This document shows positions 38,157-40,631 of a stretch of DNA of 42,267 nt, one piece after another. Numbering within the stretch: the first letter of the stretch is position 1; each line of letters starts with the position of its first letter. Source of the stretch: a virus (taxonomy: Duplodnaviria; Heunggongvirae; Uroviricota; Caudoviricetes); the IMG/VR virus record IMGVR_UViG_2541047816_000004, positions 1 to 42,267 of that record; one strand, given 5' to 3'. The notes under the pieces were generated by a model, which was not told where the DNA came from, made no database searches, and was given only the letters and a program-made list of their open reading frames with translations. Position numbers and translations under genes: made by a program.

Positions 38157-40631
38157 ATGAGTAAAGTCTTTATTTGCGCCGCCATTCCTGACGAACAGGC
38201 AATTAAGGAAGAAGGTGCAGTTGCTGTAGCCACTGCCATCGAAGCTGGTGACGAACGCCGCGCCCGAGCCAAATTTACCTGGCAATTCCTGGAGCAATAT
38301 CCGGCTGCTCAGGACTGTGCTTATAAATTTCTTGTCTGCGAGGATAAACCCGGCATGGCCCGCCCTGCCCTTGATTCCTGGGATACCGAATATATGCAGG
38401 AAAACCGCTGGGATGAGGGATCGTCTTCCTTTGTCCCGGTCGAACCAGAGCCGAATACAGAAATTGTTAACTTTAATCAGTTATCCGACGACAAACAGGC
38501 CGCTGTTCTCGTTAAGTTTGGCGCACATGAAAACGTCACCGTGGATATGGTCATCAACGCAAGCGGGCTTCTTGGCGATGACGACATGATGACCTTTGAC
38601 GGACACCTCGCAGAGGCAATTATCCGGACTAAAGAAATTAACGCCATGTATCCGGAACGTCAGATTGAATACATCAACGATGCCAGACGTGATTTAAAAC
38701 CAACCGCCAAATGGCCCGACGTTCAGGCATATTTTCTCGACCGTAAAAAACGCATGGAAAAGGAGCGCAAAGAAGGTGGTGCATATGCTTCTGTTGTTGA
38801 TCTTGCCCGTGCCAGCGTCAACCGGCAGAACACTGAAAACTCAGTAGCAAAAATCAACCCTGTCACTACTGCCATTCGTCGCGAATACAAGCAGACATGG
38901 AAAACACTGGATGATGAACTGGCCTATGCTCTGTGGCCTGGGGACATTGATGCCGGAAACATTGACGGCAGCATCCATCGCTGGGCAAAAAATGAAGTTA
39001 TCGACAACGACCGCGAAGACTGGAAGCGTATCTCGGCATCAATGCGCAAACAGCCTGATGCCCTTCGCTACGACCGCCAGACTATTTTTGGCCTTGTCCG
39101 TGAACGTCCGATCGACATTCACAAAGACCCTGTGGCACTGAACAAATACATTACTGAATACCTGACTACAAAGGGCGTGTTTGAAGATGAAGGAACAAAT
39201 CAGAGCGCAACTGATACTCTCTCGTCGCCAGTACCAGAAACTGATGCAGTGGAAACGGCAATTCCGGACAACGAAAAAACCGAATGCAAAGTGGAAATCG
39301 AACCATCTGTAGAGCGTGAGGGGCCGTTCTACTTCCTCTTCACCGACAAGGATGGCGAAAAATACGGTCGCGCAAACAAACTTTCTGGTCTGGATAAGGC
39401 ACTGGCTGCCGGGGCTACTGAAATCACGAAAGAAGAATATTTCGCCCGCAAAAACGGTACATACTCAGGTTCACAACAAAATACTGGTGCATCTGACACG
39501 ACCGCACAACCAGAGCCGGTAAAAGTTACCGCTGACGAAGTAAACAAAATTATGCAGGCAGCCAATATCAGCCAGCCTGACGCCAATCAGCTGCTTGCAG
39601 TATCACGTGGTGAATTTGTTGCAGGGATTAGCGACCCGAACGATCCGAAATGGGTGAAGGGGATTGAAACCCGCGATTCTGTGAACCAGAACCAGCAAGA
39701 AACGGAACAGAACGACCAGAAAGCGGAACAAAACAGCCCAAATGCGTTACAAAACGAGCCAGAAACGAAACAACCTGAGCCAGTAGCGCAACAGGAAGCG
39801 GAAAAAGTCTGCACCGCCTGTGGTCAGACCGGCGGCGGCAACTGCCCTGATTGTGGTGCGGTGATGGGCGACGCAACATACCAGGAAACATTCGATGAAG
39901 AGAATCAGGCTGAAGTTCAGGAAAATGATCCGGAGGAAATGGAAGGCGCTGAACATCCACACAAGGAGAATGCTGGCAGCGCTCAGGACCACGCCAGCGA
40001 TAATGAAACTGGCGAGACGGCAGATTCCTTAATTGCGGTGAACGGTCATCACGTTATCACATCCACCAGCAGAGTGTGGCACCATCTGATGATCGACCTT
40101 GAAACGATGGGAACAAATCCTGATGCGCCAATCAACTCTATTGGCGGTAAATTCTTTGATCCCGAAACCGGAGAGATGGGGCCGGAATTTAGCAAGACCA
40201 TCGATCTGGATACTGCTGGCGGAGTCATTGATCGTGACGTCATTAAATGGTGGCTTAAGCAATCACGCGAGGCGCAATCTGCCATTCTGACCGATGAAAT
40301 CCCGTTAGATGATGCACTACTGCAATTGCGGGAATTTATCGACGAAAACTCCGGTGAATTTTTTGTTCAGGTCTGGGGAAATGGAGCCAACTTCGACAAC
40401 GTGATTTTACGCCGTTCATACGAACGGCAGGGGATCCCCTGCCCGTGGCGTTATTGCAACGATCGCGATGTGCGCACAATCGTTGAGCTGGGAAAAACCC
40501 TGAACTTCGATGCCAGAACGGATATTCCATTCGACGGTGAGCGCCACAATGCACTTGATGACGCCCGTTACCAGGCAAAATACGTTTCAGCTATCTGGCA
40601 AAAACTGATCCCGAGTCAGGCTGATTTTTAA
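38157..40631 (+). CDS. RecE-like protein with C-terminal DEDDh (DnaQ-like) 3'-5' exonuclease domain
   Basis: [25 protein letters not shown] resembles RecE as recalled; C-terminal [23 protein letters not shown] exonuclease motifs. Confidence 0.65.
   Translation: [824 protein letters not shown]

Follow-up and report, generated by a model that had tools for sequence, protein, structure and literature searches.

A ydfE-type prophage gene of Escherichia coli that joins a RecE-like middle region to a DexA-class DEDDh exonuclease domain

Architecture of the 824-residue protein

We analyzed a gene of 824 codons in the virus record IMGVR_UViG_2541047816_000004 of IMG/VR, a stretch of 42,267 nucleotides that is called the window in the following. 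The open reading frame runs uninterrupted from ATG to TAA at 38157..40631 on the + strand, and a Shine-Dalgarno sequence GAGG (38143..38146, +), spaced 10 nt from the ATG, can be read off directly upstream. The complete gene encodes a ydfE-type 'exonuclease' of 824 amino acids (aa) in which a YdfE_N and a YdfE_C domain, a RecE-like middle and a DEDDh exonuclease domain follow each other. This identity and architecture we regard as near certain, and the cellular role proposed below is offered as a best guess. A gene with 100% identity to the one described here is found in the chromosome of E. coli AR_0017 (NZ_CP024886.1), where its product WP_021538002.1 is named 'exonuclease' in RefSeq, and the 42 kb around it are a lambdoid prophage flanked in this strain by sitD and rspB.

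The C-terminal domain (aa 641–824; 40077..40628, +) was assigned by Pfam, PHROG and Foldseek to the DEDDh 3'-5' exonucleases of the Rv2179c-like or T4 DexA class. An earlier note, made from the letters of the window, had read DEDDh motifs at the C-terminus, and all motifs that it quoted are indeed present, with MIDLETMG at aa 645, GNGANFDN at aa 741 and HNALDDA at aa 797. The Pfam profile PF16473 (Rv2179c-like) matches aa 642–814 over its full length (positions 1–177 of 177) at an E value of 2.2e-63, with 213.6 bits where the gathering score is 27. The PHROG assigned to the T4 exonuclease coding sequence that matches DexA, phrog_255, also matches the domain (E 3.9e-74). In an alignment of the domain with 31 standalone homologues of 39–49% identity, D647, E649, D746 and H797 never vary and D802 hardly does, and these five residues make up the full DEDDh catalytic set.

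The same note had also claimed that a 5'-3' exonuclease domain is missing, which domain annotation and structure prediction both bear out. In the AlphaFold2 model of the protein, built on a 106-sequence alignment, the DEDDh domain (aa 641–820) has block values of the predicted local distance difference test (pLDDT) of mostly 77–95. A Foldseek search of the Protein Data Bank (PDB) with the full model gave T4 DexA (8KEN/8KEL) as best match with an E value of 2e-10 and a template modelling (TM) score of 0.63–0.73 on the target, and the oligoribonucleases (Orn), REXO2, ERI1 and 3'hExo ranked after it. No PD-(D/E)XK structure was found among the PDB matches listed for the model, and Pfam gave no match to the RecE nuclease DUF3799 in the 824-aa protein, whereas its relatives P0143 and P0157 do match DUF3799. 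Profile and model agree on a PF16473 member of the DexA class with a predicted RNase H-like DEDD fold, for which a 3'-5' polarity would be expected from family membership.

At the other end, aa 1–206 (38157..38774, +) form the YdfE_N/YdfE_C module, which is modelled as an alpha/beta part with additional helices (pLDDT 71–92) and is not RecE-like. PF27430 (YdfE_N) and PF27432 (YdfE_C) are both recorded on proteins of the 100%-identical cluster, as precomputed Pfam records and not as hits of a Pfam scan run here, and aa 1–257 share 68% identity with K-12 YdfE, so that the protein can be assigned by its sequence to the YdfE family. The K-12 Qin prophage occupies the same rspB locus, where its pseudogene ydfE (b1577) is interrupted by IS2E, and by this shared locus and the 68% identity the 824-aa gene is the intact form of K-12 ydfE.

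The region between the two ends had been described in the earlier note as a RecE-like scaffold with a central RecE-like motif. The first description holds for aa 263–627 and fails for aa 1–262, which carry the separate YdfE_N/YdfE_C module. BLASTP against K-12 RecE aligned residues 263–627 of the query with RecE 278–592 (E 1e-61), the two proteins being near-identical from 478 to 627. This alignment takes in a helical domain common to RecE (aa 245–343, corresponding to RecE ~278–340; 38889..39185, +; pLDDT 82–93 past residue 250). A small beta-hairpin/helix domain with the motif GPFY...GRANK (aa 386–435; 39312..39461, +) follows with a pLDDT of about 80, and then an acidic and Q-rich linker (aa 436–640; 39462..40076, +), which is predicted to be mostly disordered (pLDDT mostly below 50) and is near-identical in BLASTP to RecE 457–592. 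The near-identical part includes a putative zinc ribbon CxxC...CxxC common to RecE (aa 552–567; 39810..39857, +), which was recognized from the sequence and is modelled with a pLDDT of only 55–58. As for the quoted RecE motif, it is found at aa 483–507 (39603..39677, +) with 23 of its 25 positions the same as in RecE 461–485, although as a conserved linear motif within the predicted disordered linker and not as part of a folded scaffold.

The similarity to RecE ends about where the RecE nuclease domain starts, this domain comprising residues 564–866 according to a review (PMC11611040) that lists the function of the RecE N-terminal region as not known. In the 824-aa protein the DEDDh domain replaces the PD-(D/E)XK nuclease of RecE about where the latter begins. 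The NCBIfam equivalog model for exonuclease VIII (NF007259) reached 274.4 bits against a cut-off of 1269 and aligned only aa 241–626 with profile positions 264–602 of 877, and PF06630 (Exonuc_VIII) was absent from the protein in the Pfam scan. Judged by sequence, the protein is not a RecE equivalog, as it falls below the cut-off and has neither the RecE nuclease nor the PF06630 domain nor a RecT partner.

Relatives, distribution and selection

A homologue search in 1.84 billion representative proteins gave 10,938 matches and showed the relatives to be combinatorial mosaics with an N-terminus of either YdfE type or RecE/PF06630 type and a C-terminal payload of four kinds. The payload is the DEDDh domain, the RecE PDDEXK nuclease DUF3799 (P0143, P0157), a domain of roughly 290 aa that we call X3 (P0155, P0159, P0166, P0196, P0220), or a short helical tail (P0131, P0148). 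In P0124 the RecE (exoVIII) profile positions 1–603 are followed by the DEDDh domain, with xis/int next and no recT, which by its sequence represents a clean domain swap. The same architecture returns in different sequence lineages, and the catalytic residues are all kept in distant fusions with different N-termini. The DEDDh domain also occurs on its own, as in P0389 (182 aa, 56% identical), which belongs to a canonical Rec module with the order cIII, Kil, x, Rad52-type single-strand annealing protein (SAP), SSB, x, DEDDh and Abc2. A guess that exoD of DLP12 is a C-terminal fragment of the 824-aa gene was rejected, as BLASTP showed no relation between the two.

X3-type proteins are common in Klebsiella, Salmonella and Enterobacter, are annotated as 'exodeoxyribonuclease VIII', and their genes are located after KilR and GamL. 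The X3 fold matched human RAD52 (8TKQ, 10.6; 5JRB, 10.4), yeast Mgm101 (9YI6, 9.7) and Sak of phage 80-alpha (8QE9, 8.2; 8PQ8, 8.0), and because of these matches X3 is predicted to have the Rad52 annealase fold, with annealing itself being predicted from the fold evidence alone. The X3-type proteins may correspond to the 'RecE-2' proteins, described as nuclease-less in PMC12315714. For both the DEDDh and the Rad52-fold fusions the annotation 'exodeoxyribonuclease VIII' is misleading.

Two sequence motifs are distributed differently over these relatives. GPFY...GRANK is carried by 114 of the 117 X3-type relatives and is missing from K-12 RecE. The linear motif RGE[FY]... is present in 10 of 26 representatives of at least 500 aa, in 43 of the 117 X3-type proteins and in K-12 RecE, and it accompanies DEDDh, PDDEXK, X3 and P0131C-type payloads. 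Since it lies in a disordered stretch and is found with every payload type, it looks like a portable linear motif and not like part of a folded scaffold, a pattern which on the sequence level is typical of short partner-binding motifs. The swapping of RecE nuclease, Rad52-fold and DEDDh payloads on one scaffold would offer a concrete way to probe the RecE N-terminal region.

Of 5426 complete E. coli genomes, 3466 (about 64%) hold a homologue that spans 80% or more of the gene, with as many as 9 matching places in a single genome, and the DEDDh segment by itself is found in 4046 of these 5426 genomes. phrog_2082 matches the protein from end to end (aa 1–824 with 1–823 of 823), RefSeq labels its homologues as 'exonuclease', '3'-5' exonuclease' or '3'-5' exoribonuclease domain-containing protein', and copies with the same synteny are present in the sequenced phages Tritos, mEp460_ev081, HannyBb, PhiR42_1 and the PPompW phages. 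With its RefSeq identity, its PHROG, its Pfam records and its presence in most E. coli genomes, the gene is thus already catalogued, and the architecture is not new, having been annotated and classified before. Our literature searches for PF16473, or for Rv2179c together with prophages, found nothing relevant, and ydfE was only mentioned incidentally. The gene stands among the most widespread uncharacterised prophage nucleases of E. coli, in a phage type that was classified in 2025.

The ratio of nonsynonymous to synonymous substitution rates (dN/dS), measured against the homologue from phage Tritos, is 0.30 for the complete gene. Among the folded parts it is 0.27 for aa 1–206, 0.07 for aa 245–343, 0.02 for aa 386–435 and 0.22 for the DEDDh domain; the linker (aa 436–640) has 0.42 and the disordered stretch 344–385 has 0.83. 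Each folded domain of the protein is under purifying selection.

Locus, missing recombination partners and Chi sites

The gene lies in an early-left operon with the order DicA-like repressor, ydfA, ydfB, sieB (on the opposite strand), a dicB remnant, a Rac-type kil, the 824-aa gene, xisR and int. The head of the operon (35782..36360, +) holds the repressor gene, with 57% identity of its product to K-12 DicA, and a PL/dicBp-like promoter-operator region recognized by alignment, the intergenic region between repressor and ydfA aligning with the dicA–ydfA (dicBp) region of K-12. In K-12, dicBp is a PL-like promoter that is repressed by DicA and drives ydfA-E (bioRxiv 10.1101/2023.04.14.536235). 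No sigma-70-like promoter was found just upstream of the 824-aa gene, and from the homologous DicA-type repressor and promoter together with the lack of a detected promoter of its own we infer early-lytic expression. Directly upstream and in the same operon is the Rac-type kil (37812..38033, +), taken from the annotation of the identical prophage and placed as in the order kilR...recE of Rac. Directly downstream is an xisR-type excisionase gene (40701..40952, +; Pfam DUF1233, E 2.5e-30) in the slot that recT-ralR-rcbA have in Rac, and it is followed by the integrase gene (40972..42267, +) at the prophage end adjoining rspB, the Qin attachment locus. Compared with kilR-ydaE-racC-recE-recT-ralR-rcbA-xisR-intR in Rac, the order kil, gene, xis, int means that the 824-aa gene occupies the recE slot. 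The segment 37702–38033 of the operon is itself a Qin/Rac mosaic, in which the truncated dicB remnant and then the Rac-type kil stand in place of the Qin genes dicB-ydfD.

Some further features of the prophage lie outside this operon. Genes for a HAD-family hydrolase and a NUDIX hydrolase are located side by side (32090–33396, −), with the replication genes on one side and the hokD/rem region on the other, and form a nucleotide-metabolism cargo pair that to our knowledge does not belong to the core genes of lambdoid phages. An iraM-like anti-adaptor gene (26673–27008, +) and two tRNA genes (Arg and Ile, about 27.9–28.2 kb) in the late-regulatory region are annotated in the identical prophage upstream of a Q-like antiterminator. 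The tape-measure open reading frame of the window (9751–12312, −) is intact with 853 aa, whereas it is annotated as frameshifted in the near-identical AR_0017 prophage, and the coordinates of window and AR_0017 prophage are offset by 1 base upstream of about 30.6 kb. The intact frame and the offset indicate that the window is a different, possibly functional, copy of the prophage.

That no RecT or Bet gene follows the gene, as the earlier note had stated, was confirmed, with xis and int coming next and with annotation, Pfam and tblastn of the window being negative, P22 Erf not being a query. Genes for single-strand annealing proteins (SSAPs), SSB or anti-RecBCD functions are absent from the annotation of the near-identical prophage by the Prokaryotic Genome Annotation Pipeline (PGAP). 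Pfam scans of the poorly named open reading frames of the window gave no annealase, the families found being DUF968/HNH, HAD, NUDIX, DUF977, YdaT, SieB and excisionase. In tblastn searches of the window nothing significant was obtained with RecT, Beta, a Rad52-type SAP, HK620 Sak4 and the X3 domain as queries, nor with the RecE nuclease domain (RecE 601–866) and lambda Exo, nor with SSBs (including HK620 SSB), GamL and Abc2. A match of 37 aa to lambda Gam (29732–29842, +; tblastn E 0.001) resembles the N-terminal leader of the long form of this protein and was judged to be due to chance, as it is confined to the initial ~40 residues of the annotated Gam and runs antisense to DUF968, a real gene. 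All six loci of the fused form (the window, Tritos, PhiR42_1, P0124, P0137 and P0123) show the same SSAP-less context with xis and/or int next, and the fused DEDDh form is consistently without a partner.

The window contains 8 Chi sites against 1.6 expected, a number which none of 100 shuffles reached; these counts are lower bounds, as the window may hold only part of the prophage. The − strand, which corresponds to 'top' in the orientation of the lambda map as deduced from the strand of the structural genes, carries six of the eight. Seven form a cluster on both strands at 24468..30346 beside the lysis/cos end, and the five of these on the − strand are top-strand sites by the lysis genes and the terminase end. 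The densest part of this right-end cluster is at 24468–24924, where three sites of the same orientation lie within 460 bp in or beside the lysis genes near the cos/terminase end. The remaining site, GCTGGTGG (40063..40070, −), lies in the 824-aa gene itself at codon 636, at the junction of linker and DEDDh domain. It is kept in Tritos and PhiR42_1 and is found neither in the P0124 gene (RecE_N plus DEDDh) nor in K-12 recE, and it could mark or favour a mosaic junction.

Lambdoid phages have recently been classified by their recombination genes (Zheng et al., Genome Res 2025, PMC12315714). In this work DnaQ-like nucleases are counted among the members of Rec modules, and 22% of the lambdoid phages are without a Rec module yet rich in Chi sites, RecBCD being what they probably rely on. 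One small class with Tritos as its type (class B) has only a nuclease, with no SAP, SSB or anti-RecBCD, and 7–21 top-strand Chi sites that are usually clustered at the right end. The window fits this nuclease-only, Chi-rich class, and the absence of partners in a Chi-rich genome agrees with the published idea that such phages use the host RecBCD (PMC12315714).

Possible roles of the fused exonuclease

That the protein has a role other than classical Red/RecET recombineering, as the earlier note suggested, seems reasonable to us. The role which we tentatively prefer, and which we rate as quite possible though just short of probable, is that of an early-lytic enzyme that processes DNA 3' ends alongside the RecBCD-Chi system of the host. 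Upon induction or infection the gene would be transcribed from the repressor-controlled early-left (PL/dicBp-like) operon, and the protein would strip nucleotides off DNA 3' ends as the sole phage-encoded component of the Rec module, with the phage otherwise depending on RecBCD, Chi and RecA of the host. Guided by the N-terminal scaffold and the linear motif, the nuclease would reach the site or partner to which sister proteins take the 5'-3' exonuclease of RecE or a Rad52-fold annealase, and 3' tails or flaps would be trimmed there on phage DNA ends or recombination intermediates, for example in order to blunt ends for RecBCD loading or to remove non-homologous 3' ends. The clean swap in P0124, the alternative payloads on the scaffold, the standalone DEDDh proteins inside Rec modules, the DexA fold and the Chi enrichment all speak for this proposal. 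The gene is also relevant to the question of how lambdoid phages without Red-like systems recombine via host RecBCD and Chi.

Several points weigh against it. Rv2179c is an RNase and Orn and REXO2 are nanoRNases, and for the domain described here polarity as well as preference for DNA or RNA would follow from the family. The scaffold partner is hypothetical, and since the N-terminal 262 aa are unlike those of RecE, it has to be assumed that both proteins are targeted to one site. Transcription from PL would have to cross the oppositely oriented sieB and about 1.9 kb in the prophage. Furthermore, 3'-5' exonucleases usually inhibit homologous recombination, and isolated DnaQ-type genes beside int are not counted as Rec-module genes, both according to PMC12315714 (the former citing Lovett 2011).

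The ranking of oligoribonucleases and REXO2 directly after DexA in the fold search, and the description of the Pfam family named after Rv2179c as a 3'-5' exoribonuclease domain, would suit a protein that has no role in recombination and serves a lytic-phase counter-defence or clean-up, by removing small host DNA or RNA with free 3' ends (cDNA of retrons or reverse transcriptases, oligonucleotides, regulatory RNAs) or by recycling oligonucleotides. Early-lytic expression suits an anti-defence gene, and a scavenging role is documented for DexA (PMC12153337). We nevertheless consider this explanation unlikely, since it leaves unexplained both the fusion to a RecE/YdfE scaffold that also bears a recombination nuclease or a Rad52-fold annealase and the position of standalone homologues between SSB and Abc2 in Rec modules. 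We also know of no lambdoid programme of host-DNA degradation that would supply the oligonucleotides. The shared PHROG and fold with T4 DexA might also suggest prophage defence or superinfection exclusion, in which the DEDDh domain would degrade incoming phage nucleic acid in the manner of EcD ('HREX') or 'TONDO'. EcD digests DNA with 5-hydroxymethylcytosine (5hmC) and, when plasmid-borne, protects against T4, and among bacteria DexA homologues occur most often in Escherichia (PMC12153337); prophage DEDDh exonucleases of the 'TONDO' type with auxiliary domains trim the 3' untranslated regions of RNA phages and counter MS2 and Qbeta (PMC13344964); and sieB lies two genes upstream of the 824-aa gene. 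Yet the DexA residues needed for cleavage of 5hmC-DNA are not conserved, as W152 aligns with C767 and D169 falls in an insertion that is absent here, the call for D169 being less secure than that for W152 in this alignment of 28% identity. An identity of the DEDDh domain with EcD was rejected, because EcD is a different, standalone protein and the residues proposed for 5hmC recognition are not conserved here, and no EcD-type sequence (MIDTET...TIPETY) was found among the 506 proteins fetched. The TONDO candidates were taken from BLAST matches of less than 500 aa and are described as sequence-distinct from other defence DEDDh domains (PMC13344964), and the PADLOC models give no match for the 824-aa protein. 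Moreover, a gene in a repressor-controlled early-left operon and with no detected promoter of its own should be silent in the lysogen, and altogether a defence function appears distinctly unlikely to us.

It might finally be argued that the fusion is a functionless evolutionary by-product, a mosaic junction that arose by recombination in the conserved recE linker and is carried along with xis-int. Crossovers are likely to occur in a recE-like linker that is near-identical in otherwise different genes, the junction holds a Chi site, and a truncated ydfE is tolerated in K-12. We regard this as highly improbable, as intact copies are found in about 64% of the complete E. coli genomes and in inducible phages, every folded domain is under purifying selection according to dN/dS, the catalytic residues are kept in distant fusions and the architecture recurs in different lineages.

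The preferred reading as a recombination-side 3'-end-processing enzyme can be widened into a more general model, which we find doubtful in this extended form. The YdfE/RecE N-terminal region, the disordered linker and the RGE[FY]... motif would then serve the early-left operons of lambdoid phages in general as a platform for delivery, one that tethers interchangeable DNA-end payloads (5'-3' exonuclease, Rad52-fold annealase or 3'-5' exonuclease) to one partner such as RecBCD, SSB or the replisome, with the 3'-5' version acting as a positive cofactor of Chi/RecBCD-dependent phage recombination. If true, this 3' exonuclease of a phage would have a stimulating and not an inhibiting effect on recombination, and the model would explain the long-unexplained N-terminal 600 aa of RecE.

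Comparison with known systems

EcD/HREX (PMC12153337) comes from E. coli as well and belongs to the same broad DexA-like DEDDh family, but its sequence, as read from the cloning primers, starts with MIDTET and ends with TIPETY, and defence was shown only for the plasmid-borne EcD. T4 DexA is closer in that it shares the PF16473 family, phrog_255 and the best fold match, and its residues D7, E9, D119, H186 and D191 align with D647, E649, D746, H797 and D802, so that the five catalytic residues are equal; a figure legend in PMC12153337 labels the second catalytic residue of DexA as E12. D719 aligns with the tetramer-forming D90 of DexA, which is Ala in EcD, in a segment where the alignment is weak. 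Identity to DexA is only 21–23% in the structural alignment and 28% with MAFFT, and DexA-specific insertions, including the one with D169, are missing. While DexA, which degrades DNA in the 3'-5' direction and takes part in intron homing (PMC12153337), stands alone in a virulent T-even phage, the DEDDh domain described here is located behind a 640-aa N-terminal region in a temperate lambdoid phage.

The standalone DEDDh proteins in Rec modules of P22-like and other lambdoid phages (P0389, and the 'DnaQ' of epsilon34 in PMC12315714) show 48–72% identity to aa 642–818, have the same catalytic residues and are also encoded in the early-left operon. They differ in being single-domain proteins with a Rad52-type SAP, SSB and Abc2 as neighbours, whereas the fused form has no such neighbours. 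Tritos of class B has a homologue with 85% nucleotide identity and equal synteny, and the window is likewise nuclease-only with top-strand Chi sites clustered at the right end; the main text of PMC12315714 names no nuclease type for Tritos and gives no account of the fused architecture. YdfE of the K-12 Qin prophage shares the rspB-side locus, the operon and 68% identity over aa 1–257, but IS2E interrupts its gene once about 257 homologous codons have passed, and the nuclease and all other downstream parts are lost.

RecE of the Rac prophage in K-12 differs from the 824-aa protein at both ends. It starts with a PF06630-type region where the 824-aa protein has aa 1–262 of YdfE type, its own nuclease is of the PD-(D/E)XK/DUF3799 type with 5'-3' polarity where the 824-aa protein has a DEDDh domain with an expected 3'-5' polarity, and its gene is followed by recT, which has no counterpart here. 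What both have in common is the early-left slot between kil and xis-int, a homologous middle region and a linker, motif and ribbon that are near-identical.

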